DNA of 64,000 nucleotides from Minisyncoccota bacterium. GTDB taxonomy: Bacteria > Patescibacteriota > Minisyncoccia > Phycocordibacterales > SBAW01. The stretch is from positions 57,261 to 121,260 of the forward strand of contig DASZSF010000004.1 of assembly GCA_035548815.1 (NCBI GenBank), in the 5' to 3' direction. The notes below the pieces were generated by a model. The model had not been told where the DNA came from. It did not search any database and saw only the letters and a list, made by a program, of their open reading frames with translations. The translations under genes and the position numbers were made by a program. Of the stretch, positions 1-60,033 are shown piece after piece. How positions within the stretch are numbered: position 1 is the stretch's first letter; every line of letters starts with the position of its first letter.

Positions 1-3000
1 TTGCGGCGCTTGAAACGGTCTGGCCGTTGATGAGCCCCGACGTTATGGTGCCCGCGCCGACGCTCAAATTGCCGTTAAAGACGTTGGTTGAGCCGAGCGT
101 CAAACGCGTCGCCGCTGACGAATCTTTGAGAATATTTCCGTTTATCTGCAGCTTGTCGTCGACGGTGAGCGTGTCGCTCGAGATGTTGTAAATGGCGTTT
201 TGCAGGCCAAGCGACGCCTGTATGGTCGTGTCTCCTTCCGCGTCGACGCGGAAGCGCTCGATGCCGTTCACCCCGATGCCCAAGAGCGTGTTGTCGGTCG
301 AGCCACTCGACGGGTTGATGTAGAGGCTGCCCTGCGCGAGGCCCGCGCCCGAAGGCGCCGCCGTCAGCGCCAGCGTGCCTGCGATGGTCGAGGTTGCGGT
401 GCCCGATACCGTCAGCGAATTCGTCAGGCTGACTGGGAAGTTGTTGAATTCGAACTGCTTGGAGACCGAGTTCCACTTGAGCGTCGCGTTGGGGCTGGCG
501 ATGCCACGCGAAAACGCGAGCGTCGCGTCTTCGGTGTCGTTCGTCGCGTTGTCGGAGTTGATGACGAAGGTCGACGACGCCGTGCCGCCCGCGACGACAT
601 TGGTAACGTTGAGCGTCTCCGCATAGACATTCGCAAAGCGCTGCGTCGGCGAGCCGAGGTTGTAGGTCGCGTCGGCGTTGGGGACAAGGTCCGATGCGGC
701 CTCGCCGTTAAACACGATGTTGTTCGACGCGTTGGCACCGAGCGTCGTATTGCCAAGGACGCTCAGGTGGCCCGCCAGCACGTTGGTGCCCGTCGTATTG
801 GTGGAGTTGAAGGTGCCGACGATCTGCACATCGCCTTCCGCGTCGATGCGGGCGCGCTCTGCCCCGTTGACGGCGAGCCCCACAAGCACGTTGTTGGTGC
901 CGGCGCTGGCCGGGTTGATGTACACCGAGCCCTGTCCGATGCTGGCGCCCGACGGCAGCGACAGCACCTGCAACTGGCCGCCCGTTATCGACGACACTGT
1001 CGCACCGTTGACAGTGAGCGCACCGCCCACATACATGCCCCCGGTCGTCGTCGCACCACCCGCGACGGTTAGGCCGCCGGTCTCTGTGCCGGTGCCGATG
1101 GTCGTCGACGCTAGAAAGAGGTTCCCGCCCGTAAATTGGTTGTTGTCGGCGAGCAATGTTGACGATGCCGCGGTGATGGTGATGGAGCCGCCCGCATTCA
1201 ACAGCGAGCCGTTGATAGTGCCGAGCGGGCCGGCAAGGATGTCCGCGCCGATGCTCGAGGTCGCGACGACCTGGCCTGACGCGTTGATCGAGAGCAGCGC
1301 GTTGGCGAGCGCTGGAAGCACGAGCGCGCCGACGCTGACGTTGTTCGCGAAGTACGCGTTGCCCGTCGTTGTCGAGTTGCCGCTCACCGTGAGGCCGCCC
1401 TGTGCCGACCCGTTGCCAATGGTCGTCGATGCGTATGCTGTCAGGCCAGCGTCGAACTGGACAAGCGTCGAGGTCGCGTTGCCAGGCTGCTGGAACGGGT
1501 ATGACGCGGCCACGGTCGTAAACAACGAGCTACTGCTGACCTTCTGGTTGAAGAGGTTCCAGTCGCTTGATGCGAGGTAGCCGTCCGTCGAGCCGTTTGC
1601 CTGCGAGATCGAAAGCGTGTTCCCGGAGAACGAAAGCGGGCCCAAGACGGTGGTGTTTGCCACGGAGCCGTCCGCGTTGGTCGAGAGCAAGGCGCCCGCG
1701 AGGCCCGTGATTGCAAATGAGGTTGAGGTTGCAGTTGTGAGGGCCGTGTTACCGCTAAAGATGTTGGTGCCCGAGAAGGTGTTGTTGTCGGCGAGCAATG
1801 TTGACGAGGCGGTGGAGATGTTAATGGAACCGCCCGCGGGTACGTCGAACCCGTTGATGGTTGCCAAGGTTCCCGTGAGAAGGTTGGTGCCTATAGAGGT
1901 CGTTGCTATGACCGAACCGTCTGCGTTGGTCGCAAGCAGCGCGTTGGCGAGCCCCGTGATGGCGAATGCGCTGGAGGTGGCGTTGGTCGTCTCAAACGAG
2001 GACAGGCTGACAGTGCCACTTATAGTGAGGTCGCCTGCGACATCCAGGGAGTTGGTTTTTATATATTTTGCGATGATCGAGTCCGCATTGGTCGTTCCAT
2101 GTTCCGTTACATCGTTAAGGTTATTGATGACTTGCGAAATGACGACATTTTGAAGCGGGCTTTCGTGGCCAGGATTCTGCAAGAACGCGATCTGCATTTG
2201 AAGCGCCATCTGCAGTGCACTGAGTCGTTCTTCGAGCTGTGCTGATGTTATACCGCTCACGACCGTCGTATGTTCTACCGTGCGTTCAATGACAGGATAC
2301 GTAATGTTCTGAACAACAGTGTTTGTGGTTCCACTCGTGCGAGGCGCAGTTGCAACAGTCGGAGTTGAAGTTGCTGTCTGGTGCACTGATACAGGTTTTG
2401 CTACAGGTTGCACTGCAACAGGGGTGTTTTGTTTAGGAGCAAACAAGATAGCAAAGACATTTGAGAGGAATTTTGTCGCCCCCGCAAAGGCATGCCCTGA
2501 TGGGGTTGGGAGTATCACGCCAGGAGCCTCAACGCCAAAGAATGGGACTTCTGTCTTTGCGACCGAAGCGACCTGATTTTCTTTCAAGGGGTGAAGGGTC
2601 GAGGCAAACACAAGCGCACCCACCAAGAAGAGCGAGCCGGCAAGTGCCGCAACCGAACTTCCGGCTGCAAGTGGACGTGCGTAATAATAAACTTTTTCAA
2701 AAAGACTGCCGTTTTGTTTTTTGTACGAAGCAACTTCAAGACGGCGTTCTTTTGCCAACTCTTCTGCGCGTTGGCGCTTTGCAGCGATACGGGATTCTTC
2801 AAAACGCGCAATCGATTCTGGAGTTACATACCACTGGCCATCAATTTGTTCGCCTTCAAGCTTTCCTTCCCGACACAATTTCGAAACATAATCTGCTGCG
2901 CACGAAAGTCTTTCCGCAGCCTGGCGAGTAGGAATAAGCTCAACTTTGCGATTTGTAGATACATCTGAAGCAGATGCGGCTTCACCAAACGACAAAACTG

Positions 3001-3298
3001 CTGCCAGGGCTTTTTGCAAGAAATTTGCATTCGCGGCACGGAAATTTTCGTTTTCCAAACGGCGTTGTTGTGCGAGCACTTCTGAGCGGCGTGCTTTTGC
3101 ACGTACCCTATTTTCTTCGAACACACTAATAGAAGCCGGGTCCACGTACCATACACCCTCCACCTGTTTGCCGATCAATTTTCCTTCGCGACAAAGTTTA
3201 GAAATGTAGTCCGGGGCACACTTCAAAAGCAGGGCTGCCTTGCGTGCCGGCAACATCAATTCACTCGTGTTTGAAATTATTTTTTTGGTGGATGACAT
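1..3298 (-). CDS. Giant cell-surface repeat protein (partial; C-terminus lies beyond window start): two tandem N-terminal HTH_17/excisionase-like modules, one signal-anchor TM helix, then >850 aa of Thr/Ser/Asn/Gly-rich beta-helix-like repeats
   Basis: Manual minus-strand translation from ATG at 3296-3298: MSSTKKIISNTSELMLPARKAALLLKCAPDYISKLCREGKLIGKQVEGVWYVDPASISVFEEN... second copy ...TRQAAERLSCAADYVSKLCREGKLEGEQIDGQWYVTPESIARFEES...; TM YYYARPLAAGSSVAALAGSLFLVGALVFAST; repeats e.g. LTVSGNSTTTGNAYFANNVSVGALVLPALANALLSINASGQVVATSSIG / GIERFRVDAEGDTTIQASLGL. Frame stays open to position 1. It is not in the ORF track (no in-window stop; the track seems to omit edge-truncated ORFs). The + strand track ORFs at 200-2576 are antisense artefacts of this gene. 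Confidence 0.7.
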   Translation of the reverse strand, partial: MSSTKKIISNTSELMLPARKAALLLKCAPDYISKLCREGKLIGKQVEGVWYVDPASISVFEENRVRAKARRSEVLAQQRRLENENFRAANANFLQKALAAVLSFGEAASASDVSTNRKVELIPTRQAAERLSCAADYVSKLCREGKLEGEQIDGQWYVTPESIARFEESRIAAKRQRAEELAKERRLEVASYKKQNGSLFEKVYYYARPLAAGSSVAALAGSLFLVGALVFASTLHPLKENQVASVAKTEVPFFGVEAPGVILPTPSGHAFAGATKFLSNVFAILFAPKQNTPVAVQPVAKPVSVHQTATSTPTVATAPRTSGTTNTVVQNITYPVIERTVEHTTVVSGITSAQLEERLSALQMALQMQIAFLQNPGHESPLQNVVISQVINNLNDVTEHGTTNADSIIAKYIKTNSLDVAGDLTISGTVSLSSFETTNATSSAFAITGLANALLATNADGSVIATTSIGTNLLTGTLATINGFDVPAGGSINISTASSTLLADNNTFSGTNIFSGNTALTTATSTSFAITGLAGALLSTNADGSVANTTVLGPLSFSGNTLSISQANGSTDGYLASSDWNLFNQKVSSSSLFTTVAASYPFQQPGNATSTLVQFDAGLTAYASTTIGNGSAQGGLTVSGNSTTTGNAYFANNVSVGALVLPALANALLSINASGQVVATSSIGADILAGPLGTINGSLLNAGGSITITAASSTLLADNNQFTGGNLFLASTTIGTGTETGGLTVAGGATTTGGMYVGGALTVNGATVSSITGGQLQVLSLPSGASIGQGSVYINPASAGTNNVLVGLAVNGAERARIDAEGDVQIVGTFNSTNTTGTNVLAGHLSVLGNTTLGANASNNIVFNGEAASDLVPNADATYNLGSPTQRFANVYAETLNVTNVVAGGTASSTFVINSDNATNDTEDATLAFSRGIASPNATLKWNSVSKQFEFNNFPVSLTNSLTVSGTATSTIAGTLALTAAPSGAGLAQGSLYINPSSGSTDNTLLGIGVNGIERFRVDAEGDTTIQASLGLQNAIYNISSDTLTVDDKLQINGNILKDSSAATRLTLGSTNVFNGNLSVGAGTITSGLINGQTVSSAA

Positions 3299-3477
3299 TG
3301 GCCCGATAAAACTTTTGTTTTTCCAGAGATTTCGGAGATACGCACTTACAAATTAAGTATACGGACGAGTTGCAAAAAACTTCAGAAAAAACTCATCGAA
3401 AACTGTGGATAGAAATTAAAAATATTTTTTACAAAATAAAAAACTACGCGCAATAAAATAGCTCAAAAATAGCCTTA

Positions 3478-3751: not shown

Positions 3752-4465
3752 CTATTTTTGACAACTTTTGAAAATGAAGCAGAGTGTTGCTTCTTGTATG
3801 TAGGATATGCTTGCTGGCTTCCCATTTTCCACCGTTACAAGCGAATTTATCTCTAATGAGCCGAAGAAAGATACAGCAAGGATAAGTGCTGCGAAGGAGA
3901 CAAGGGATACTGTTAACATACTCTTTTTCGCTATACTGATCTTCTTTTTTGGAGTTATAGTCACAGGCGGTATATTCTCTTGAATTCGCGGAGCTGCCGC
4001 TGGCTGCACACGCGCTGCAAAAACTGGCGTTGGGCGTTTTGCTATCTCGGGAAACAGAGGGCGGTTATCTGCGATATAGGTAAGTGTCTGATGACGTACG
4101 GGGGTTGGAAGAGGAGCAGCTACTGGAGCAATGGATTTCTCTTCAAGCACCTCTATGGTACTGATCTCAACTGCTGGTACCACTTCTTCTTTCTTTTCTT
4201 CCTTAGCCTCTTCACTAACTACTGCAATAGAAATGGCTTCAGGCTGAGGCTCAGACGCGATCTCAGGAGCAATATAGGCTGTCTTCTCTTTGTTTAGATA
4301 ATCAACAAAGGACTGTTCATCTACATACCACGCACGTCCCACTTTCGTGCCAATCACCTTTCCACCACGAATAAGCTGACCGATGTAGTCAGCATGGTAG
4401 CGGTTCTCTTTAGCTATCCGCTTAGACGATATGTATCGCTTCCCCGAGATTTCTAATTCATCCAT
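3752..4465 (-). CDS. Membrane-anchored protein with N-terminal HTH_17/excisionase-like module (paralogous to the modules on the giant protein), acidic/Pro-rich linker, single C-terminal TM helix and short external tail
   Basis: ORF track 237 aa; N-term ISSKRIAKENRYHADYIGQLIRGGKVIGTKVGRAWYVDEQSFVDYL matches the motif DY[IV]SKLCREGKL.G.Q..G.WYV of the neighbour; TM MLTVSLVSFAALILAVSFFGSL. Confidence 0.6.
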   Translation of the reverse strand: MDELEISGKRYISSKRIAKENRYHADYIGQLIRGGKVIGTKVGRAWYVDEQSFVDYLNKEKTAYIAPEIASEPQPEAISIAVVSEEAKEEKKEEVVPAVEISTIEVLEEKSIAPVAAPLPTPVRHQTLTYIADNRPLFPEIAKRPTPVFAARVQPAAAPRIQENIPPVTITPKKKISIAKKSMLTVSLVSFAALILAVSFFGSLEINSLVTVENGKPASISYIQEATLCFIFKSCQK

Positions 4466-5900: not shown

Positions 5901-6875
5901 CTATACTACACGCAAGCGTGCAATAAGTGTATCCCGGAGGTTTTTTACCAACTCGTCATCAAGTATGGAAACAAAGACTGTCTCCTTCCCTTCCCTGGCG
6001 AATGCGTTCTCTACCTCACGGAGATGTTCCACGGTACAAGCATCTGATTTCGTCAAAACGAGCATCTCAGGTTTTTCTGAAAGTACTCCATCTTCAAACT
6101 GAGCGAGCTCTGAACGGATGCGGCGGTAGTCCGCCACAGGGTCTTCTGATTCGAGCGATACGCAATGTACCAGCAATTGGGTACGCGAGATATGGCGCAA
6201 AAATTGGAACCCGAGACCTTTTCCGTGCGACGCCCCCTCGATTACCCCAGGAATATCGGCAATAACATATCCATATAGTGCGCCGAGATTTGGATCGAGC
6301 GTGGTAAATACATACGCACCAACTTTTGCCGAAGCGCCGGTAAGGGCATTTAAAAGAGATGACTTTCCGGCATTTGGAAGCCCGACAAGCCCTGCGTTTG
6401 CAATAAGTCTAAGTTCAATGTGCAGCCGAGCCGCTTCTCCCCGCGCACCTGGCGTGCTTTCTTTAGGGCTTTGGTTCACCGACGATTTAAATGCAGCATT
6501 GCCGGCACCTCCCCGCCCGCCCTTAAGCACGAGCATCTGCTGTCCGTCTTCCGTGAGTTCAAACTCCTCCCCTGTATTTTCGTTGCGAATACGCGAACCT
6601 ATCGGCAAATCGAGCACAAAATCTGCACCTGCATGACCTGCTCTATGGCGGTTTGCACCCTCTTTACCGTCTTCTGCCTGGAATTTCTTTTCGCCGCGGT
6701 ATCGTGCAAGGAGGTTAATGTCGCGCACGCCGCGAATATAAAAATCTCCGCCGTCGCCTCCATTGCCACCAGCAGGTCCGGAAAATTCTTGCGCTTTCAA
6801 ATGCAGCCATCGTACGACACCATCGCCTCCGTTGCCTGCGCGCGCATCTATATCCAGTTCATCAACAAACGCCAT
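5901..6875 (-). CDS. obg: GTPase Obg/CgtA
   Basis: 324 aa; Obg fold N-term (glycine-rich GGDGG repeats) and G domain GLVGLPNAGKSSLLNALT, DIPGVIEGA. Confidence 0.95.
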   Translation of the reverse strand: MAFVDELDIDARAGNGGDGVVRWLHLKAQEFSGPAGGNGGDGGDFYIRGVRDINLLARYRGEKKFQAEDGKEGANRHRAGHAGADFVLDLPIGSRIRNENTGEEFELTEDGQQMLVLKGGRGGAGNAAFKSSVNQSPKESTPGARGEAARLHIELRLIANAGLVGLPNAGKSSLLNALTGASAKVGAYVFTTLDPNLGALYGYVIADIPGVIEGASHGKGLGFQFLRHISRTQLLVHCVSLESEDPVADYRRIRSELAQFEDGVLSEKPEMLVLTKSDACTVEHLREVENAFAREGKETVFVSILDDELVKNLRDTLIARLRVV

Positions 6876-6883
6876 AGGAACAC

Positions 6884-7234
6884 TTAGCCCTGCGGCTTCT
6901 TAAAGGCTGCGTGGAGGATCATGGAAACGACCGAAAGCAGCGCTGATGCTTCAAGTGCTGGAATAAAGCCTGCGACGCTAAAGCCCTGCACGAATTCTGC
7001 GAGGAGCCAGAACAGTAGCGCGTTTAAAATAAACGAAAAGAGGCCGAGCGTCAGTATCGTTATAGGAAAGGTAAACAATGTGAGCAACGGGCGCACGGTT
7101 ACGCCAATAATGCCCCACAAAAGCGCTACCCAGACAGCCGTACCAAAACTTGCGATAGCAATGCCCGGCACATAGCGGGCAATAAGCAGCAGTGCCCCTG
7201 CAGTGATCAATATTTTTGCAATGAGTCTAAGCAT
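6884..7234 (-). CDS. Small 4-TM membrane protein, DUF360 / phage holin family 4-like
   Basis: 116 aa, four hydrophobic helices; pattern ...RPLLTLFTFPITILTLGLFSFILNALLFWLLAEF... resembles the Phage_holin_4_2 family. Confidence 0.55.
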   Translation of the reverse strand: MLRLIAKILITAGALLLIARYVPGIAIASFGTAVWVALLWGIIGVTVRPLLTLFTFPITILTLGLFSFILNALLFWLLAEFVQGFSVAGFIPALEASALLSVVSMILHAAFKKPQG

Positions 7235-7251
7235 AGCGCAATCGTACTATG

Positions 7252-8010
7252 TCACAGGTGGTTGAGCAACGATGCGTAGGCGTCGGGTGAAAAAAGTCCA
7301 GTTATCCAGCCGGCAAAAATATCCATATATCCAAACAACATATAAGCGCCGAACGCGACAAGGATGCCGCCTGCAACTTTGGACAGCAGTTCAACTGCAC
7401 CCTGCATGCGTGCAAAATATGCGCCTGCTTGTGTCAGCAGGAATGCGGTCACTAGAAACGGAATACCGAGGCCGAGCGAAAATACTGCGAGTAGTAGTGC
7501 GCCTTGAGCTGCCGTTGCGCTGGCCGACGCGTAGAGCAGTATCGTCCCAAGAATAGGTCCAATGCAGGGCGTCCATCCAAGCGCAAACAAAACTCCCATC
7601 AAAAAGGAGCTCTCGGGACGACCGACAACAATAAAATGAGGTGTCTTGATACGGCGATCCGACATGAGCACTGGTATGCGGACCAACCCTAGCATTGTTA
7701 AACCAAAGAATATGATCACCGCCCCAGCCACGCGGGTTATGATGCTGCGCCACGGTCCAACCAACGCACCAATGCTTGCGGCAAAGAGTCCTAACACAAT
7801 AAATATAAGGGATAACCCGAGCACGAAACACGACGCGTTCACAAGCACACGACGGCGCGCTTCCTTTGAACCAGTTTTTTTGATCTCTCGCTCGGGGACG
7901 CCAGCAATAAATGCTAGGTACCCGGGCACAATAGGCAGCGTACACGGAGCTAAGAACATCAAGACGCCAGCAATGAATGCGGCGGGAATGAATGAAAGCG
8001 CGTCGGGCAT
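7252..8010 (-). CDS. ccdA: Cytochrome c-type biogenesis / thiol-disulfide transporter CcdA (DsbD-family) membrane protein
   Basis: 252 aa polytopic; conserved Cys motifs LAPCTLP and WTPCIGP. Confidence 0.85.
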   Translation of the reverse strand: MPDALSFIPAAFIAGVLMFLAPCTLPIVPGYLAFIAGVPEREIKKTGSKEARRRVLVNASCFVLGLSLIFIVLGLFAASIGALVGPWRSIITRVAGAVIIFFGLTMLGLVRIPVLMSDRRIKTPHFIVVGRPESSFLMGVLFALGWTPCIGPILGTILLYASASATAAQGALLLAVFSLGLGIPFLVTAFLLTQAGAYFARMQGAVELLSKVAGGILVAFGAYMLFGYMDIFAGWITGLFSPDAYASLLNHL

Positions 8011-8447
8011 TACCCTATTGTATCTAATATAGACTTCAAAAACTCGCGATCGCGTGGGTGTGTGAGGAGAGTGACAGCTTCAGCTGGTGCAACATAGCGG
8101 GCTTCTGTTATCTCGCCGTCTGGGTCACGTGGATGGAGCACATGCTGGCTTGTTTCAAATAAAAAGAAGGTCTTTTTTTGCATCCCCCAGTCGGTATTCT
8201 CGCCTTTCCCGTCCGCACTTATGGAATATCGTTCATACGAGCCGAGAGCTTTCACATAGGCAAGGTCAGTAATGCCTGTCTCTTCCTGGATTTCTCGGAT
8301 AGCCGCGTCGCGTGCGCTTTCACCTTCTTCAACATGACCTTTAGGAAGCGACCACGAATTACCGTGCTGACACACAAGCACAATACGGCCATCAGGCCCC
8401 TTGACTACCCCGCCCGCGCTTTCGCGTATAGTATCTTCGCGTGCCAT
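8010..8447 (-). CDS. NUDIX hydrolase
   Basis: 145 aa; Nudix box GHVEEGESARDAAIREIQEETGI. Confidence 0.85.
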   Translation of the reverse strand: MAREDTIRESAGGVVKGPDGRIVLVCQHGNSWSLPKGHVEEGESARDAAIREIQEETGITDLAYVKALGSYERYSISADGKGENTDWGMQKKTFFLFETSQHVLHPRDPDGEITEARYVAPAEAVTLLTHPRDREFLKSILDTIG

Positions 8448-10978: not shown

Positions 10979-10994
10979 AATTTACCATAAAACA

Positions 10995-29831: not shown

Positions 29832-30835
29832 CCCCCCCTCGCGTGACCGTACTTATGCCCGTGTACAATGGTGCGCGGTATCTGCGTGATGCCATGGACA
29901 GCATTCTAGCCCAGACCTATGCGGACTTCGAATTCCTGATAGTGGACGACGGCTCGACCGACGAAAGCGTGGAAATAATACGATCCTATACTGATCCTCG
30001 GATCCGACTGGAGCGAAACGGAATGAATCGAGGCCTGGTATACAGCTTGAACCGAGGCATCAGCCTGGCCCGGGGCGGATATGTGGCTCGCATGGACTGC
30101 GACGACATAAGCCTTCCGCAGAGGCTGGCCGAACAGGTGGCATATTTGGACAAACACCGGGACATCGCGGTATGCGGCACGTGGGTCAAGACGCTCGGAG
30201 AGAGAGCTGCTGCCTACGAATATTTCTTGGACCCGGAGGATATCAAAGCTTCGCTCCTATTCACTACGTCCCTCGCCCACCCTACTGTCATGCTCAGAAA
30301 GTCTTTGCTCAAGGAAGCGGGGCTCGAATACGACCCGGCGCATGCTCATGCGGAAGACTACGGGCTATGGGTATCTTTGGTCCATGCCGGATACAAGCTC
30401 GCGAACCTTCCTCTCGTGTCTCTTCTCTACAGGCGGCATGTGGCAAGCGTAAGCGCCGCTCATAGCAAAGCGCAAAAAGAAACAGCGTCCGGCATACGAA
30501 ATGCGCAGCTCGCTTGGCTCGGGATCGATGCGAGCGCGGAACATATGGAAATCCATAACGGCATCAAAGGCGGAGAAAACTTCGTGCGGGATGCGGAAGC
30601 ATGGCTTACTACGATTCTAAATGCCAACAAAACATCGCGCGTATACAGCCAGCTTTCGCTTGGGCGCGTGGTATACCGGCGCTGGCGGACCATCTGCGGA
30701 GCGAATGCGGGCAGCGGGCTTATGACATGGCGCATGTTCATACGCTCTCCTCTTTCTCATCTTGCAGGCAGGCGTGAACGATACCTCGACAGCGCGAAGT
30801 TTTTTATTAAAGGGCTGCTAGCGCGGCCAGGATAG
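29816..30835 (+). CDS. GT2 family glycosyltransferase
   Basis: 339 aa; VTVLMPVYNGARYL...FLIVDDGSTD...DCDD. Confidence 0.85.
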   Translation: MDTTLAPPRVTVLMPVYNGARYLRDAMDSILAQTYADFEFLIVDDGSTDESVEIIRSYTDPRIRLERNGMNRGLVYSLNRGISLARGGYVARMDCDDISLPQRLAEQVAYLDKHRDIAVCGTWVKTLGERAAAYEYFLDPEDIKASLLFTTSLAHPTVMLRKSLLKEAGLEYDPAHAHAEDYGLWVSLVHAGYKLANLPLVSLLYRRHVASVSAAHSKAQKETASGIRNAQLAWLGIDASAEHMEIHNGIKGGENFVRDAEAWLTTILNANKTSRVYSQLSLGRVVYRRWRTICGANAGSGLMTWRMFIRSPLSHLAGRRERYLDSAKFFIKGLLARPG

Positions 30836-31913
30836 TCTTGGCCCGCGCGTCCCAGGTAGAAGCCTCGGCTTTCGAGCGCGCCGCGTGCGCGAGCGCCTCG
30901 GCATGCGCGCGCTCTTTACGCACACGCTCGATAGCATGCGCGAGCGCTCTCGCGTCGTCGGGCACGAACGCGGTTGCGCAGTCCTGCAGCACCTCGCGCA
31001 TGACGGGCAGATCAGAATAGATGATCGGCTTCCCGCTCGCCATATATTCGTATGCCTTCATGGGGAAGCCGTAGTCGCGGAAATGCGGCTGGTCGGGGTA
31101 CGGAATCGCGAGCGCATCCACAGCCTGCTCGTAGGCAGGAACATGCTCTGTGGGCACGAGAGGCACAAATATGCACCGGTCTTCCACGCCCTCTTTCTCT
31201 GCATACGCGCGATACTCCTCTATCTCCCCCGCCCGCCCGCCTACGAACACCATCTTCATCGTTCGATCATCGCTATGGCGCAGGGCTTTGATCATGACTT
31301 CGAGCCCTTTGCTCATGCCAAGGGTCTTGTAGAGGCCCACGTACCCGACCAAAAAGCCCTCCGGAAGCCCCAATTCCTGCCGCAGTGCAGTTGTATTTTT
31401 TGACGCACTATAGGGGGCAAGGTCCACCCCTCCGTAGGCTACGACGACGCGTCCAGCATCGACGCCGGTTGCGGCGACAAGCTGGTTCTTGAGATGGCGC
31501 GTCGTCGCAACCAAGCAGTCGCTTCCCTCTGCCACCGCCCTGTCGCGCCAGTCGCCAAAAAGCATATGCCAATCCGACGCGATGCGGAACGACGCGCCCA
31601 GCACCCGCCGCCAAAACATAAGGAGCACGAGGAGGTTGGGGTCGTTCGCAAAGTACACCGTGTCCTTGCCCGCCCCGTATGTGCGTATGAGGCCGGGCAG
31701 CTTAAAGAAGTACTGTAGTCGCACGCCACGCCGCACGCGCAGATGTACGTTTTCGTGAGGAATACCGGCAAGCGCGTTTTCCGCAGCCTCCGCCACCACA
31801 AGCGTAAAGGCGCCCGGCAGCAAACGAGCGAACGCGTCCGCCATTTTCTCGACAAAAAAATGGTCAGCGGTGGAAGCCGGATATGTCTTTGCCGTCACAT
31901 AGACGAGCTTCAT
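30807..31913 (-). CDS. GT4 family glycosyltransferase
   Basis: 368 aa; C-terminal Glycos_transf_1 region ...FPMKAYEYMASGKPII... Confidence 0.85.
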   Translation of the reverse strand: MKLVYVTAKTYPASTADHFFVEKMADAFARLLPGAFTLVVAEAAENALAGIPHENVHLRVRRGVRLQYFFKLPGLIRTYGAGKDTVYFANDPNLLVLLMFWRRVLGASFRIASDWHMLFGDWRDRAVAEGSDCLVATTRHLKNQLVAATGVDAGRVVVAYGGVDLAPYSASKNTTALRQELGLPEGFLVGYVGLYKTLGMSKGLEVMIKALRHSDDRTMKMVFVGGRAGEIEEYRAYAEKEGVEDRCIFVPLVPTEHVPAYEQAVDALAIPYPDQPHFRDYGFPMKAYEYMASGKPIIYSDLPVMREVLQDCATAFVPDDARALAHAIERVRKERAHAEALAHAARSKAEASTWDARAKTILAALAAL

Positions 31914-32093
31914 GGTTGGACTATAATAGCACGGTGATTGAAAAATTTAAAAAGCTTGTGCATGCCCCACGTCTCCTGTGCAACAGATTTGGATATTGCG
32001 TGCGCCGGTATCGGATGCCGCAATCGAGCGTATCCTCAAATAGGACAGTACTGTGACCGTATTCACGAATATTCATTTCCTTAGGAAAGGAAT

Positions 32094-35688: not shown

Positions 35689-36573
35689 TTAGAGCGTATC
35701 TCGCCATTGGCGTTTCCATTCTTCGCGTGTTGGCATCGTAAGTTTCAACTCCCCTTTCGTACCTTCTGCAAACACGTCTTTCAAGGCATGAGCAAGCTCT
35801 ATATGTGGCACCACTACCGCTCCCGCCTGGCGTGCAATGCCGACGTCGGGGGCCACAACAGGCACGCCTGCAGCCAAGGCTTCAATAATACTTGCCCCAA
35901 AACTTTCCTGCCATGATGTGCAAAGTACTGCGTCAGCCTTTTCAAGATATGGGAGCGGGTCGACCCAGCCTGGGAACTCTACATGTACTCCCACCGCCCC
36001 TCGTTCAAGCTCTTCTTTCATGCGACCATCGCCGAGCATGATTAACCGCACATCAGGTATAGTACGAGCTACCTCTTTAAAAATACTAAGCGCGGCACGT
36101 GGATTCTTTTCATGCTCAAAGCGCCCGATCCAAAGCACAGTTTTGCCTTCGTGCGAAATCCGATGCACAGATCTGAATTTTTCTAGTTCGACGAATATTG
36201 GAAGCACGTGGACATCAGGGACACCCAAAAGTTCGGCTTGTGTCTTTAGTTTGTTCGATACGACCCGCACAGAATCTGCGCGACGAAGTACGTATCCCGC
36301 GATCATCCGTTTGATAAACGACTGATTGGCGAGATCTGCATGGAGTTGCGCAGAGAATCGCACCTTCGCCTTGCGTGCGGCACGCAAGGCTGCAAGTCCG
36401 CGCCAAAACGGGTCTTGCACTGTGACAACGTCAAATCTCCGCGCGTCGGGAATGCGCGCCGCTCCTTTGCCCCAATACACGACCTGCAACTCATCAACAG
36501 CTTCTCGCTGCAATTCAAAACGTGCGTTGCCCGGACCAAAACGTTTATCGCCGGTTATCGTGAGTACTTTCAT
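35689..36573 (-). CDS. GT4 family glycosyltransferase (short)
   Basis: 294 aa; ...WIGRFEHEKNP...FPGWV...SWQESFGASIIEALAAGVPVV... Confidence 0.8.
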   Translation of the reverse strand: MKVLTITGDKRFGPGNARFELQREAVDELQVVYWGKGAARIPDARRFDVVTVQDPFWRGLAALRAARKAKVRFSAQLHADLANQSFIKRMIAGYVLRRADSVRVVSNKLKTQAELLGVPDVHVLPIFVELEKFRSVHRISHEGKTVLWIGRFEHEKNPRAALSIFKEVARTIPDVRLIMLGDGRMKEELERGAVGVHVEFPGWVDPLPYLEKADAVLCTSWQESFGASIIEALAAGVPVVAPDVGIARQAGAVVVPHIELAHALKDVFAEGTKGELKLTMPTREEWKRQWRDTL

Positions 36574-37646
36574 AAAGCTGTAAGAAGTGCGGAGACGCTG
36601 TCAAGCGTGCGGTCTATAGAAAAATATTTCGATTTCTCCCGTGCTGCGGCGCGGCGCATACGCCACGCGTCCTTGTCAGCATAGACGCTCTCAAGGGCGG
36701 CGAGGAACCCCGCTTCGTCATTAGGCGCAAGGAGGATGCCTTCTTTTCCGTTCTCAATCAATTCCGGAATACTTCCAATATTCGTGGCGATAATCGAGGC
36801 TCCCACGGTCATCGCTTCGGCGATCTGAAAAGAAAAACTCTCGAACGAGGAATTGAGCACGAAGGCGTCTGTGGCCTCGCACCAGCCAAGCACCTCTGCG
36901 CGAGGGATTTCTCCTGTAAATGTTACGCGCTCGCGCACGCCCTCCGTCTGTGCCAATGCTTCAAGCGACGCCCGTTCCGGGCCGTCCCCCACGATGACTA
37001 AGTGCCATGCTGGCATACGCGTCAGCACGCGCATCAAAAGGCCGAACCCTTTCCAGGGCACGAGACGTCCAATCGACACCATACAGGGATGTGCTATAGG
37101 TCCCCTAGGTCTTCGGGATTCTTCCTCTCCTATGCCGTTATAGATGACAACAAGGCGTTCCGACAAAACACCCCAGGTCAGGACCACCGTCCGAAAATAG
37201 ATGCTCGGCACGATAACGCGATCGGCGCGTCTTACGACAAAGCGTTGTACGCGGCGCACCGCCTCGGTGCGGAGTCTGTATCGCCGTGTTTGAAACACAT
37301 CTATGGTGTCGGTGATACCCCATCGCTGGCGCGCCTGTTCCCATGCATAGTCTCCGGGCACGCGAACAACGAATCTCTTTCGTAGCAGGAACGCTGCAAG
37401 TGCAGCAGGAAGGCCGACTGATACAGTATCTTGCGCAAATAGGGCGTCCGCCGGGCGCGCAAGCCAGCACAGCCACAGGAAGTACACCGTATGCCGCAGG
37501 AACCTGGGCAAATGCCGCACAGCGCCAAACGGGAGTACATCTACTCTAATCCCTCGTGAAGGCAGATGTTCTTCAAACAGCTTTGCATATGTCGCCGGCC
37601 CTCCGACATCGGGGGGATAGAGGCCTGTAGCTAAGAGAATTCGCAT
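36570..37646 (-). CDS. GT4 family glycosyltransferase
   Basis: 358 aa; ...SIGRLVPWKGF...VGDGP...NSSFESFSFQIAEAMTVGASIIATN... Confidence 0.85.
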   Translation of the reverse strand: MRILLATGLYPPDVGGPATYAKLFEEHLPSRGIRVDVLPFGAVRHLPRFLRHTVYFLWLCWLARPADALFAQDTVSVGLPAALAAFLLRKRFVVRVPGDYAWEQARQRWGITDTIDVFQTRRYRLRTEAVRRVQRFVVRRADRVIVPSIYFRTVVLTWGVLSERLVVIYNGIGEEESRRPRGPIAHPCMVSIGRLVPWKGFGLLMRVLTRMPAWHLVIVGDGPERASLEALAQTEGVRERVTFTGEIPRAEVLGWCEATDAFVLNSSFESFSFQIAEAMTVGASIIATNIGSIPELIENGKEGILLAPNDEAGFLAALESVYADKDAWRMRRAAAREKSKYFSIDRTLDSVSALLTAL

Positions 37647-37664
37647 GAATAAATCGTATCGCCT

Positions 37665-47611: not shown

Positions 47612-47795
47612 ACAAATACTTTATTACTAACGTTTATAAACTATTGTTGAGGTTGACCTCAGCCGTAACCATAATACCCTGTGTGTGAATTCTTTATGAA
47701 GATTTATTCATCTTCTGACACTCTATATTGACTTTATATAAATTTGGTGTAGAAATAATTCGAACACGTTCGTTCAAACCACAGGGAGAAATGAT

Positions 47796-49845: not shown

Positions 49846-49906
49846 CAAAAAACCTCCTAAAACCCTAATAAAATTTCGATAAAATCTATCTAAAAATTCG
49901 CACCTT

Positions 49907-49982
49907 TGGTGCGCGCGCTAGGGATCGAACCTAGGACCTTTCGAGTATCAGTCGAATGCTCTACCAACTGAGCTACGCGCGC
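49907..49982 (-). tRNA. tRNA-Ile (anticodon GAU), CCA encoded; sits in the 16S-downstream spacer
   Basis: GCGCGCGTAGCTCAGTTGGTAGAGCATTCGACTGATACTCGAAAGGTCCTAGGTTCGATCCCTAGCGCGCGCACCA. Confidence 0.92.
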
Positions 49983-50067: not shown

Positions 50068-50194
50068 GTTCTACAGTCCCCTGACGTAAGGGGAGACCGA
50101 GTACAGTATAGGATCAGTACTATCATCCAATTCCCTTGCGAGAATTATCGCCTTTTCAGTTGTGACCTCGTACGAGGGGCACAACGTCTTTCAT

Positions 50195-51653
50195 TTGAAT
50201 TGTTCCACGAGCAGCTTCCGCTACCCGTGCCTTGTTACGACTTACTCCCTATCACCGAGCTTGCCGTGGGCCGCGCGAGGCGGACTTCGGGCACTCCCGG
50301 CTCTCTTGAGTTGACGGGCGGTGAGTACAAGACTTGAGAACGTATTCACCGCGGTATAGCTGACCCGCGATTACTAGCGATTCCGGCTTCATGAGGTCGA
50401 GTTGCAGACCTCAATCCGAACTGGGCACTCGTTTAAAGGATTGGCTCAGGGTTACCCCGTCGCGACCCGTTGTCGAGTGCATTGTATCATGCGTGCAGCC
50501 CAGGATATCAGAGGGACATGCTGATCTGGCGTCATCCGCACCTTCCTCCCCCGTGAGGGGGCAGTCTCGCCTGACATATAAAACAGGCAACGCGGGTTGC
50601 GTTCGTTACCCCACTGAAGGGAACAACTCAAGCCACGAACTGACGACGACCATGCATCACCTGCCCAGCCGTCTTGCGAGGTCCAAAGTTTCCTAAGGAT
50701 TACGTCTGGGTTTCAAACCCTGGTGAGGTTCTTCGTTTGCCATCGAATTGAGCCGCATGATCCACCGCTTGTGCAAGTCCCCGTCTATTCCTTTGAGTTT
50801 TAATCTTGCGATCGTACTACCCAGGCGCCTAACTTAACGCGTTAGCTACGTCTCGGAGAGGGTCGATACTCCCCAAAACTAGTTAGGATCGTTTAGGGCG
50901 TGGACTACCGGGGTATCTAATCCCGTTCGATTCCCACGCTTTCGTGTTTCAGCGTCAGATGTGCGCCAGTATGCTGCCTTCGCATTTGGTGTTCCCCATA
51001 ATATCAACGGATTTCACCCCTACACTATGAGTTCCGCATACCTCTCGCACCCTCGAGTCGTGCCGTTTCCACCGCGTTTTCTAGGTTAAGCCTAAAAGCT
51101 TTCACGAAGGACTAACACGACCGCCTACACACCCTTTACGCCCAGTGATTCCGGATAACGCTTGGGGCCTCTGTATTACCGCTCCTGCTGGCACAGAGTT
51201 AGGAGCCCCTTATTCATGGGGTAACGTCAATTACTTCCTCCCCCATAAAAGGTCTTTACGTCCCGAAGGACTTCATCAACCACGCGACGTCGCTCCATCA
51301 GGCTTTCGCCCATTGTGGAAAGTTCTTGACTGCAGCCATCCGTAGATGTATAGCCCGTGTCTCAGTGCTATCGGTGAAGGTCAGCCTCTCAGCTCTTCTA
51401 AGCGTCATAGGCTTGGTAGGCCATTACCCTACCAACTACCTGATGCTGCGCAGGCCGCTCAAAAAGCGGATTACTCCTTTAAAGTCGCCTTACTATCGGG
51501 AATTACCTAACCTTTCGGCTAGCTATGCCCGACTTTTCGGTGCGTACCTGCGTTATACTACCTCGTCTGCCGGTTGCCTTGCGGCCCCCTTGACTTGCAT
51601 GCCTAATCCACGTCGCCAGCGTTCATCCTGAGCTAGGATCAAACTCTGAATAT
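50195..51653 (-). rRNA. rrs: 16S ribosomal RNA gene (about 1.45 kb), 3' end uncertain; atypical 3' tail lacking canonical anti-SD
   Basis: Minus strand reads AGAGTTTGATCCTAGCTCAGGATGAACGCTGGCG at the 5' end (about 51645), GTGCCAGCAGGAGCGGTAATAC (515 region, 2 mismatches), GGATTAGATACCCCGGTAGTCC (806 region), AAGTCGTAACAAGG (1492 region), then helix 45 CACGGGTAGC-GGAA-GCTGCTCGTG followed by GAACAATTCAAAT instead of GATCACCTCCTTA. Confidence 0.9.
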
Positions 51654-51692
51654 AAGAGACAATGCCACAAATAAATGTGTCATGTTCTTGTT

Positions 51693-55720: not shown

Positions 55721-55857
55721 GTCGTGAGAATACCAGGAAAGCTCTGCATTTCAAAGCCCTTGACTGGTCAAAAAATAGTTGTCGCAAAACCTATCCACAG
55801 GCTCTCTTAGGCGAGCTGGCTCATACTGAAGCCAGACCACAACCCGGGAGTCCGGTC

Positions 55858-57506: not shown

Positions 57507-58583
57507 CTAGTTCTTGTGCCGGCGGAGAGGTTCAGGAACAAATTCTTCGTATTCACCATTGGTGTAATAGAACGCATCGAATGACGGTGCGGAGTATTGG
57601 AAACCATATTCGCGCGTGAGTTTTGAGCCATCCACTGCTATCGGGTAGGAGTAACTCTTCCAGCCACCTTTCGAAGTTGGCACACGACCCCGAGTCCCGT
57701 GCCACATGCAGAAAAATACAAACCGTATGAGCTGCGGGTGGACATACAAAATGCGCTTTCCTACTGCGCGCGCCATATCGGGCGCACGAACAACATCACC
57801 CGGCGGGCAAAGATTGAACGCGTTGTACGATTTTTTGAGCGGCGAAAACGCAAGGAGTTCGACAATGCGCACGACGTCATCTTCGTGAATGAATTGGCGG
57901 AGCCATGTATGCGTTGCTGGCACAAAGCGTGTCATAAGCGATACAACGCGGTGCACGAACGACTCTTTGAGTTGACCCGAAAGGGCGGCCTGAAGGCCGA
58001 ATCGTATACGCATGTAGCGACCACGCGGCCCCGTGATTGCCGCAGGGCGTACGATAGCGACTTCTATATCCCGACCGCGCTCTTTTGCTGTTGCATATTT
58101 TTCTTCCAAATGTGATTCGGTAATGCGCTTTTCTTCCGCATACAAATAGTCGCTGACGCGGAATCCCTCTTCTTCTTTGTATCGATGGTCGACGCTGTTG
58201 TCTTTGCGCGCACCATAAGACGCAACGGTTGAAAAATGTACAAGTCGCTTTACGAACGAGTGCTCGAAGCAGAAATCAAAGACACGGTCCGAGCCGTCGA
58301 TATTCCATTTCCATTGCGTCTCTTTTTTTCCGTACATCTCGCGGATCTGCCACGCTGCATGTATGACAACATCTGGCTGGTATGGCAGGACTTGCGTCTC
58401 CCACTCCGCGTCGGATAGATTTTTATGAATGTAGTGAAGCTTTTTCTCGTCCTTGATGAGGTCCGGCAGCGGCTCTTTGTCTATACCAATGATGGTTTTG
58501 ACATCATCACGCATAGCAAAACGTCGGACGAGCATTTGCCCGACGTATCCGCCCGCTCCCGTTATAAGGACTGTGTGTTGCAT
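57507..58583 (-). CDS. NAD-dependent epimerase/dehydratase family protein
   Basis: 358 aa; VLITGAGGYVGQML Rossmann, YxxxK region. Confidence 0.75.
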   Translation of the reverse strand: MQHTVLITGAGGYVGQMLVRRFAMRDDVKTIIGIDKEPLPDLIKDEKKLHYIHKNLSDAEWETQVLPYQPDVVIHAAWQIREMYGKKETQWKWNIDGSDRVFDFCFEHSFVKRLVHFSTVASYGARKDNSVDHRYKEEEGFRVSDYLYAEEKRITESHLEEKYATAKERGRDIEVAIVRPAAITGPRGRYMRIRFGLQAALSGQLKESFVHRVVSLMTRFVPATHTWLRQFIHEDDVVRIVELLAFSPLKKSYNAFNLCPPGDVVRAPDMARAVGKRILYVHPQLIRFVFFCMWHGTRGRVPTSKGGWKSYSYPIAVDGSKLTREYGFQYSAPSFDAFYYTNGEYEEFVPEPLRRHKN

Positions 58584-58592
58584 AGATGTACT

Positions 58593-59966
58593 CTACCAAG
58601 AACTGACGCGGAACAACATTCGTTTCACTGTCTTAAGCGCAATAACAATGTCGAGCGCGAACGACCTATGCTTGATGTAATAAAAATCATACGCCAAACG
58701 GACACGTGTTTCTTCGACCGACTGGGGACTCAACTTCCCTTGCTCATACTGTTGATTTATCTGAGCCCAGCCGCTAATGCCAGGCTTCACCGCATAGCGC
58801 ACATTGTAATAGGGAATCTCTTCTGCCAAACGCTCGCCCAACCCAAGGATGTCGTTGCGCGGTCCAATAAGCGACAATTCGCCTTTCAATATATTTAAAA
58901 ATTGCGGAAATTCGTCGAGCGATATTGTGCGAAGAATGCCGCCCACGCGTGTCACTTTATTCACACGCTCCTCTCCTACCCAGTCCTTCGATGCCGAATT
59001 ATTAAAACTCATGCTTCTAAATTTGTATGCGCGCATACGCCTTCCACCTTCACCTAAACGTTCTTGCGCAATAAATAATTCTCCAGGTCCTTCGAGCTTC
59101 ATTGCAAGAAAAATGAATGGTGTGAGTACGATAGTGATAAGACCCATCATAAGGCCTCCCACGATGTCGATGAGTCGTTTAGTGATTGAATAGAAGTTCG
59201 TTTGAGATCGCGTAATATTTTTCAGAAACCAGTCATAGCGAAGAAGCGAGAGTGGCACCCGGTCAAACACTTCTTCGTATACTTTGTAAAAATCTGCGTA
59301 CTGAAAACGATCGCTGGCAATGGTGAGTTCATAGACTGCCGGCAGGAGCGGGCGGGTTGTTTCGTGTTCCGCGTCAACGACAACCAGCGTTACATCTGCG
59401 TCTTTAAGTTCTTGTGCAAAGATGCCGAACTGTTCGACCATTAGCGCTGCAGGATTTTGAACCACAACAAATTCTAAGTGGTATCGCGGGTTGTTATTCA
59501 CTTCACGAACGAGCTCGTCAACTTCCGGGCCCGAACCGATAACCGCTGCACGCTCCCGGCTTACCGGTTTTGACAGTTTAGGAAACAACCACAACCGCCA
59601 CAAAAATATGAAGAACAGCGAAAGACCGAGATAGATAGCCAAACTCGTTTTAGGAGCGATACCAATCTGCGGAATTAAAAAGAAGAGCAGTGCCGCAAGC
59701 GCAATGTTAAACGCTTGCGTACGGAAGATAACGCGTGGGACTTCGCTGCGAAACAACACTGCGTGCTTGCTGTAGAGGCCTGCCATATAAAACACGAGCA
59801 ACCACAGTGCGAACAAGAATCCAAATGCTCCGATATATGCCTCCACTATCTCTTCAGTCGGCAAACCGCGATAGCGCAGGAAAAGTGTCAGCAACAGCGA
59901 AATACAAAAGACCGCTAGGTCCCCCAAAAAAAGCAGTCCGAGGGCATATCTCCTACTAAATGTCAT
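58593..59966 (-). CDS. Polyprenyl-phosphate sugar-1-phosphate transferase (WbaP/WsaP-like initiating glycosyltransferase, Bac_transf family)
   Basis: 457 aa; 4-5 N-terminal TMs, C-terminal ...KRLIDIVGGLMMGLITIV...GPGELFIAQERLGEGGRRMRAYKFRSM...DEFPQFLNILKGELSLIGPR... Confidence 0.9.
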   Translation of the reverse strand: MTFSRRYALGLLFLGDLAVFCISLLLTLFLRYRGLPTEEIVEAYIGAFGFLFALWLLVFYMAGLYSKHAVLFRSEVPRVIFRTQAFNIALAALLFFLIPQIGIAPKTSLAIYLGLSLFFIFLWRLWLFPKLSKPVSRERAAVIGSGPEVDELVREVNNNPRYHLEFVVVQNPAALMVEQFGIFAQELKDADVTLVVVDAEHETTRPLLPAVYELTIASDRFQYADFYKVYEEVFDRVPLSLLRYDWFLKNITRSQTNFYSITKRLIDIVGGLMMGLITIVLTPFIFLAMKLEGPGELFIAQERLGEGGRRMRAYKFRSMSFNNSASKDWVGEERVNKVTRVGGILRTISLDEFPQFLNILKGELSLIGPRNDILGLGERLAEEIPYYNVRYAVKPGISGWAQINQQYEQGKLSPQSVEETRVRLAYDFYYIKHRSFALDIVIALKTVKRMLFRVSSW

Positions 59967-60033
59967 CGTGGTACGTTATATCATATAACCTTATATAATC
60001 TAGGTTAGTTTCAATACGGACAGACACATTTGT

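Follow-up and report, generated by a model that had tools for sequence, protein, structure and literature searches.

A Parcubacterial 16S rRNA gene whose 3′ tail lacks the anti-Shine–Dalgarno motif, with −10-like boxes at the start codons of surrounding genes

We analyzed a 64-kb window of bacterial DNA (the whole stretch of 64,000 nt, from contig DASZSF010000004.1) that carries a 16S rRNA gene whose 3′ tail lacks the CCUCC anti-Shine–Dalgarno (anti-SD) motif. The gene lies on the minus strand and is full-length at 1462 nt, short as in bacteria of the candidate phyla radiation (CPR). Downstream come tRNA-Ile(GAT), then the convergent gene of an OmpR-type response regulator on the plus strand, and then tRNA-Leu. 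There is no 23S gene after the 16S and tRNA-Ile, and the 16S is unlinked to 23S. The order 16S, tRNA-Ile, response regulator and tRNA-Leu is identical in five close relatives (L121–L125). A terminator-like hairpin with a T-run (GCGCACC-AAA-GGTGCG-AATTTTT, about 49912..49890, minus strand) overlaps the 3′ end of the tRNA-Ile gene. Coordinates of the features are collected in Table 1.

The 3′ end of the gene follows the usual bacterial layout as far as helix 45. The conserved AAGTCGTAACAAGG is found at 50243..50230 (minus strand), directly 5′ of the helix, and the helix itself (CACGGGUAGC-GGAA-GCUGCUCGUG) has ten of ten pairs intact and retains its GGAA loop. It co-varies with the UAUCCGUAGG/CCUGCGGAUG version of lineages that keep the anti-SD, and the changes are fully compensated. 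After this normal helix comes GGAACAAUUCAAAU in place of the bacterial GGAUCACCUCCUUu. Aligned to the Rfam model, whose sequence here is GGAUcACCUCCUUu, GGAACAAUUCAAAU matches only at G, A, C, A, U, C plus the final U, with AUUCA (50200..50196, minus strand) at the CCUCC positions and GAACA at the GAUCA positions. In the stretch from helix 45 to tRNA-Ile, a motif scan found no CCTCC, GATCA or GGAGG; GATCACCTCC and CACCTCCTT are absent from both strands of the whole 64 kb. A preliminary description of this locus had reported both a canonical layout with a co-varying helix 45 and a tail without CCUCC, and these observations are borne out in every detail. Ribosomes encoded by this 16S have no CCUCC for pairing with mRNA. 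The sequestration seen in Bacteroidia, where an anti-SD is present yet unused, does not describe the window, in which the anti-SD is absent.

We then scanned one genome per species (GTDB set) with the 1390-region signature GTACTCACCGCCCGTCAA and recovered at least 120 loci, nearly all from CPR/Patescibacteria. The tail could be classified in 109 of these, giving 110 sequences with the window; the counts that follow are among the matches listed. An altered tail without any CCUCC-like motif is present in 74/110 (the window and 73 of the 109 loci), reading GGAAUAAUUCAAUUUGAAA, GGAACAUAUCCAAUUUGGAAC, GGAUUAACUCAAAUUGAGAU and similar. Twenty-one of the 110, mostly Peribacteria and Peregrinibacteria, have a weakened tail such as GGAACAUCUCCUUACCAGGGAG. 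The remaining fifteen are canonical or near-canonical (Magasanik-, Uhr-, Berkelbacteria and others): twelve read GGAUCACCUCCUU, and three from Peribacteria/Peregrinibacteria keep CCUCC behind GGAAUA, GGAACG or GGAUCA. Among the matches listed, the closest 16S sequences come from Candidatus Adlerbacteria (L055, 90.7%), Paceibacterota (L022, 90.2%) and L012 (87.7%), and both L055 and L022 carry the altered tail. A metagenome scan with a lineage-specific 27-mer added five contigs with 88–93% 16S identity and the same gene order; in all five the tail reads GGAACAATTCAA[A/T][T/C]GAAA or is cut inside that stretch. Recurrence of this tail type in seventy-three other species-level genomes and five contigs goes well beyond what chance would give. 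By its 16S identities and the CPR signature GTACTCACCGCCCGTCAA, the window belongs to a bacterium of the Parcubacteria (Paceibacterota, CPR), and loss of the anti-SD is common to the whole lineage.

The trait is already published for this clade. Tsurumaki, Saito, Tomita and Kanai (2022, RNA 28:1041; PMC9297842), in the part of their paper available to us, report that just 48% of Parcubacteria have the CCTCCT motif, and that its absence overlaps with the lineages lacking uL1. The preliminary description had called anti-SD loss rare, which is correct for bacteria overall (PMC6107228) but not within this clade, where it is the usual state (PMC9297842). Since the trait is clade-wide and known, novelty is low, and the window is one more member of a known group. 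Our additions are modest: a leaderless promoter signature, the lack of a replacement SD, a compensated 530 pseudoknot and covariation between tail and trailer.

Two further observations concern the loci in this set. Many metagenome-assembled genomes (MAGs) deposited as 'uncultured Candidatus Saccharibacteria' (L003, L006, L007, L026, L033, L041, L058 and others) have a helix 45 and tail identical to those of Nomurabacteria/Paceibacterota, as do a few MAGs named Gammaproteobacteria, Planctomycetia or Spiroplasmataceae. The deposited names of these MAGs look unreliable. In L002, L008, L068, L075 and L111 the normal 16S end is missing within 330 nt of the 1390-region signature and unrelated DNA stands in its place, a pattern consistent with the insertions (introns) that rRNA genes of CPR are known to carry.

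The 515 region of the window (51194..51176, minus strand) reads GTGCCAGCAGGAGCGGTAA. The two mismatches to the universal primer site described previously can be read directly in the sequence. They belong to a double compensatory change, with UC at 505–506 and GA at 525–526 in place of GG/CC, that preserves both pairs of the 530-loop pseudoknot. The same UC/GA combination is present in at least thirteen further loci (fourteen with the window). Other CPR loci have UG/CA or GA/UC versions, and most anti-SD-keeping lineages have GG/CC.

Although the tail has lost its motif, its sequence does not appear to vary freely. Across the 110 CPR tails, the bases at positions 7–10 beyond helix 45 (UUCA in the window, where the canonical tail has CUCC) are complementary to the trailer 2–7 nt downstream, and arm and trailer change together: CUCC/GGAG, UUCC/GGAA, GCCU/AGGC, CUCU/AGAG, UCCC/GGGG, UUCA/UGAA, CUCA/UGAG and UCCA/UGGA. 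With the 5′ arm fixed at positions 7–10, its complement is found in the next bases of 62/110 sequences. Swapping trailers between sequences with different arms gave a mean of 22.3 ± 4.0 and a maximum of 37 in 1000 trials, and the best-stem scores were above all 200 swap and shuffle controls. We relied on scripted tests with these nulls; an ungapped MAFFT alignment, whose 3′ arms fall out of register because loop lengths differ, was not used. The covariation suggests that constraint persists at the former anti-SD positions, which would now form the 5′ arm of a short pairing with the start of the 3′ trailer. Such a pairing would most likely act in the pre-16S rRNA, either in 3′-end maturation or in masking of the tail. 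The assembly GTPase Era reads GAUCACCUCC beside helix 45, and most CPR lack it (PMC10582724). In Flavobacterium johnsoniae, 16S processing slows when the anti-SD is removed, and this effect does not depend on translation (PMC13000453). As a plausible frame, these two findings suggest that the tail has a role in ribosome biogenesis that can survive the loss of mRNA pairing.

A second hairpin stands in the spacer immediately 3′ of the tail. It is stronger than the tail–trailer pairing just before it and co-varies in relatives (GUUUGUGUAUCUCGUACGAGUACACAAAC, GUUAUGUCUCGCUUUGCGGGGCAUAAC); in the window and in L121, L122, L123 and L125, the stems are GUUGUG...CACAAC, GUUUGUG...CACAAAC and GUUAUG...CAUAAC. 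A conserved UGAAWMGGCG follows it, and the hairpin may be a processing site. Its presence next to a co-varying tail raises another explanation, namely that the 3′ end of mature 16S is longer, pairs with itself, and occupies or closes the platform site where the SD helix normally lies. The mature end is not fixed by these data, and the absence from most CPR of Era, whose part in 30S assembly is played at the 3′ end of the 16S (PMC10582724), would agree with it. However, the same pairing would permanently mask the anti-SD of lineages that retain CCUCC, and in the window the pairing is thermodynamically weak. We consider this explanation unlikely, and favor a tail that pairs with its trailer only in the precursor.

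We next asked how the genes around this 16S begin. The fifty-two window genes were chosen with a home-made picker of open reading frames (ORFs) scored by codon usage. In gatB, obg, secA, folD, the response regulator and others, a Pfam domain begins within residues 1–10, which supports the start calls, and 44/52 longest ORFs start with ATG. Upstream of these starts, at −18 to −5, the SD 4-mers GGAG, GAGG or AGGA occur in 4/52 genes compared to 5/52 in a control region, showing no enrichment. The close relatives L121–L125 are likewise at background (2/23 versus 2/23), while the E. coli positive control is clearly enriched (17/39 versus 4/39). Mean duplex energies between positions −20 to −2 and ACCUCCUUA tell the same story: −2.24 kcal/mol in the window (n = 52) with control regions at −1.95 and −2.74, compared to −4.84 and a control of −2.0 in 50 kb of E. 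coli K-12 run through the same script. The SD-like motifs noted previously at murB and at the S41 peptidase gene are present, at a frequency expected by chance. The preliminary description had noted that anti-SD loss would imply SD-independent initiation across the whole genome; such initiation holds for the fifty-two window genes, and the range covered is these 64 kb plus about 44 kb of relatives.

Could the new tail have acquired a matching new SD (e.g. UUGAAUU/UGAAU), forming a natural orthogonal pair? The tail is conserved within the lineage (GGAAYAAUUCAA), and this conservation could reflect pairing with mRNA. The upstream regions give no sign of it, though: duplex energies at −20 to −2 with AACAAUUCAAAU average −1.09 kcal/mol compared to −1.33, −1.41 and −1.43 in controls and shuffles, and the words enriched in an unbiased k-mer test include no tail-complementary k-mer. 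Furthermore, the core of the tail varies among sister lineages (UUCA, UCCA, CUCA, UUAA), and the trailer of the rRNA itself holds its partner. Among the 128 anti-SD-less taxa listed by Amin et al. (2018; PMC6107228), in Bacteroidetes, Mycoplasma, Carsonella and others, none was found to match a variant anti-SD with a variant SD. A remodelled pair is therefore very unlikely. Complementarity to the longer tail, used in place of AACAAUUCAAAU, was not enriched either. With both duplex energies and motif counts at background, the genes carry neither a classical nor a remodelled SD.

It is about equally improbable that a canonical anti-SD is supplied from elsewhere, by another rrs copy whose tail contains CCUCC or by a mature 3′ end that lies in another part of the spacer. 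Our evidence spans 64 kb, and the spacer does contain CUCC at 50095 (within UCUCCCC) and CCUC at 50177. Both, however, sit in predicted hairpin stems that are not conserved in relatives, and we reject a displaced anti-SD in the spacer or the rest of the window. No canonical copy was seen in the five contigs or, among the matches listed, in the seventy-three genomes that share the tail. Moreover, as the genes lack SD enrichment, nothing is left for a canonical rrs copy to read. Finally, an assembly error, chimera or decaying rRNA gene has nothing to recommend it beyond the unusual sequence, and its probability is negligible: the full-length, high-scoring RF00177 match, the compensated pairs of helix 45 and of the 530 pseudoknot, and the identical or near-identical tails of independent assemblies exclude an artefact or pseudogene as far as sequence data allow.

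What is found upstream of many genes is a −10-like box at a fixed position. The hexamer TANNNT begins exactly at −12 in 10/52 genes, where 0.77 are expected per position (binomial P = 4.5e-9). It does so in 6/23 genes of the close relatives and in 0/39 of E. coli. The words enriched at −20 to −3 are either −10-like (ATAC, TAGA, AGTA, TGGTA, GTATA, TAGTA) or contain stop codons that belong to the preceding gene. Aggregated over the genes, base frequencies point to T at −12, A at −11 and T at −7. Codon 2 is A-rich in the window genes. A box at −12 or −13 is kept in the orthologues of secD, an AAA-type kinase, the fasciclin gene and an RsmI-like gene. Because the hexamer ends 6 nt before the A of the ATG, transcription would start on or beside the start codon. 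From the position of these promoters, we infer that many mRNAs are leaderless. A literature search, limited to the library searched, found nothing relevant on leaderless initiation in Parcubacteria/CPR. In addition, 26/52 genes overlap a same-strand upstream gene or lie within 15 nt of it, a spacing that would suit termination–reinitiation coupling.

Table 1. Features of the 16S rRNA locus and −10-like boxes at start codons in the 64-kb window.
Feature	Position	Strand	Basis or remark
16S rRNA gene	50193..51654	-	Rfam RF00177, 1349.9 bits, model 1-1533; 1462 nt
530-loop region	51176..51209	-	CC525-526 to GA, pseudoknot partners GG505-506 to UC (Rfam alignment)
Helix 45, CACGGGTAGC-GGAA-GCTGCTCGTG	50229..50206	-	
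16S 3′ tail, GAACAAUUCAAAU (GAACAATTCAAAT)	50205..50193	-	Rfam alignment, motif scan
Palindrome UUCAAAUGAA (tail positions 7-10 and trailer complement; inferred precursor hairpin)	50190..50199	-	Covariation
Spacer hairpin, GUUGUG-CCCCUCGUACGAGGU-CACAAC	50159..50185	-	In minimum free energy and centroid folds; immediately 3′ of tail
tRNA-Ile(GAT)	49907..49982	-	ARAGORN, Rfam; 210 nt downstream of 16S
TAGTAT, -12..-7 of gatB	5903..5908	-	GatB_N domain from residue 7
TACGAT, -12..-7 of holin-like gene 6884..7234	7241..7246	-	
TACAAT, -12..-7 of DsbD-like gene 7252..8010	8017..8022	-	
Extended TGgTAAATT, -12..-7 of secA (ATG 10972)	10979..10984	-	SecA_DEAD from residue 7
TATAGT, -12..-7 of gene 30807..31913	31920..31925	-	
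TACGAT, -12..-7 of gene 36570..37646	37653..37658	-	
TAAAGT, -12..-7 of fasciclin-domain gene	47618..47623	-	L122 orthologue: TATATT at -12
Extended TGgTATTCT, -12..-7 of secD	55727..55732	-	L123 orthologue: TGGTATCCT one base further upstream
Extended TGgTAGAGT, -12..-7 of epimerase gene 57507..58583	58590..58595	-	
TAACGT, -12..-7 of sugar-transferase gene 58593..59966	59973..59978	-	

At the left end of the window, an ORF of at least 1117 codons (2–3352, minus strand) runs off the edge. Its distal part is GC-rich (62.6% in 1–2000, compared to about 52% overall), and its N-terminus resembles that of the neighboring gene 3752–4465 (...YISKLCREGKL... and ...YIGQLIRGGKV...). Shorter ORFs nearby on both strands have no Pfam match; the long frame itself was outside the scan.

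Taken together, these results make the following account probable. An otherwise intact and functional 16S rRNA has lost its anti-SD throughout the lineage, and the genes do without either a classical SD or a tail-complementary motif. Many first genes of transcription units would give rise to leaderless mRNAs initiated directly on AUG, and about half of the genes, those overlapping or within 15 nt of an upstream gene, would be reached by termination–reinitiation coupling. The tail would be retained as the 5′ arm of a pre-16S pairing with the trailer, changing by compensatory substitutions across CPR. Judging from the literature, loss of Era, the reader of GAUCACCUCC, may have freed it to drift. 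The preliminary reading of a lost or remodelled anti-SD with SD-independent initiation thus finds support in the tail alignment, the SD 4-mer counts and the E. coli control.

Several points weigh against this account. Twelve of the fifty-two genes lack both a −10 box at the start codon and a close upstream gene, leaving their initiation unexplained, and all gene starts depend on the home-made ORF caller. Both the proposed leaderless transcription and the position of the mature 3′ end of the 16S are deduced from DNA. The structural register of the tail–trailer pairing was set by our own script, without an independent alignment. In the window this pairing is 3–4 A/U-rich pairs that are left unpaired in the centroid fold; being weak alone, it is treated here as a covariation-supported pairing in the precursor. 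Lastly, the evidence covers 64 kb of the genome, which bears on a second rrs copy, Era and uL1. Among the thirty-four window ORFs scanned with Pfam, all within these 64 kb, there were no ribosomal proteins, Era or initiation factors, and only Obg was found.

Lineages that keep CCUCC or CUCC bear on how old this state is. We examined seventy-seven genes beside the rRNA loci of such CPR (L013, L017, L019, L027, L029, L032, L034, L036, L043, L078, L102, L103, and Peribacteria loci including L001, L010 and L038). In this small sample with crude gene calls, SD 4-mers precede 2/77 genes compared to 8/77 in the control region, whereas the same simple pipeline gives 17/39 versus 4/39 in E. coli; TANNNT lies at −14 to −11 in 21/77 where about seven are expected. 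SD-independent, leaderless initiation may be general in these groups as well. If this result holds on whole genomes, SD disuse is older and wider in CPR than anti-SD loss. We tentatively raise the possibility that, across CPR, SD-independent and largely leaderless initiation both preceded and exceeds anti-SD loss, with the tail kept mainly for pairing during pre-16S maturation. A tail kept mainly for trailer pairing would allow CCUCC to be rewritten in Parcubacteria (UUCA, UCCA, CUCA and others) provided that the trailer changes too. If true, this would show from a natural case that what the conserved 3′ tail does in biogenesis can be separated from its binding of mRNA.

Pairing between the SD and anti-SD is the textbook route by which bacteria choose start codons, and lineages without it can reveal what else is able to choose starts. 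The window adds sequence detail to a published but barely explored case: there is no new mRNA-pairing motif, putative promoters sit directly on start codons, and the evolution of the tail still appears to be constrained by pairing with its own trailer. The findings also matter in practice. Gene finders that model ribosome-binding sites will mis-call starts in these genomes, 16S annotation pipelines that seek CCUCC will misplace the 3′ end, and 515F-type primers miss these genomes because the 530 loop has a compensated change.

The nearest known system is the anti-SD-less Parcubacteria themselves (PMC9297842), which share with the window the lineage, the absence of CCTCCT at the 16S 3′ end and an SD helix presumed not to form. 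The available part of that paper reports the absence of the motif and its overlap with uL1; the replacement sequence, SD usage, start-codon promoter boxes and tail–trailer covariation are what we examined beyond it. Some Flavobacteriia, Mycoplasma, Carsonella and Hodgkinia (Lim 2012; PMC6107228, available in part) likewise have no CCUCCU and no SD or compensating SD, and have small genomes, as here. The window differs from the bacteria of PMC6107228 in phylum, CPR being absent from the groups listed in the part available, and in that its loss spans a large free-standing radiation with a clear leaderless promoter signature.

In Bacteroidia, whose ribosomes are blind to the SD because bS21, bS18 and bS6 sequester the anti-SD (PMC13000453), initiation is also largely SD-independent, and the second role of the anti-SD region in 16S maturation fits the processing role proposed for the window's tail. 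Bacteroidia nevertheless keep CCUCC and use it for rpsU, whereas the window has none. CPR lineages with CCUCC but without SD enrichment (2/77) may be the closer parallel. Leaderless-rich bacteria such as Mycobacterium and Deinococcus resemble the window in having a −10 hexamer at a fixed short distance and ATG-dominated starts, but they keep a canonical anti-SD and use the SD for part of their genes. The window's boxes also resemble the −10-like motifs TACACT, TAGACT and TATACT that Amin et al. (2018; PMC6107228) found where an SD would be expected.

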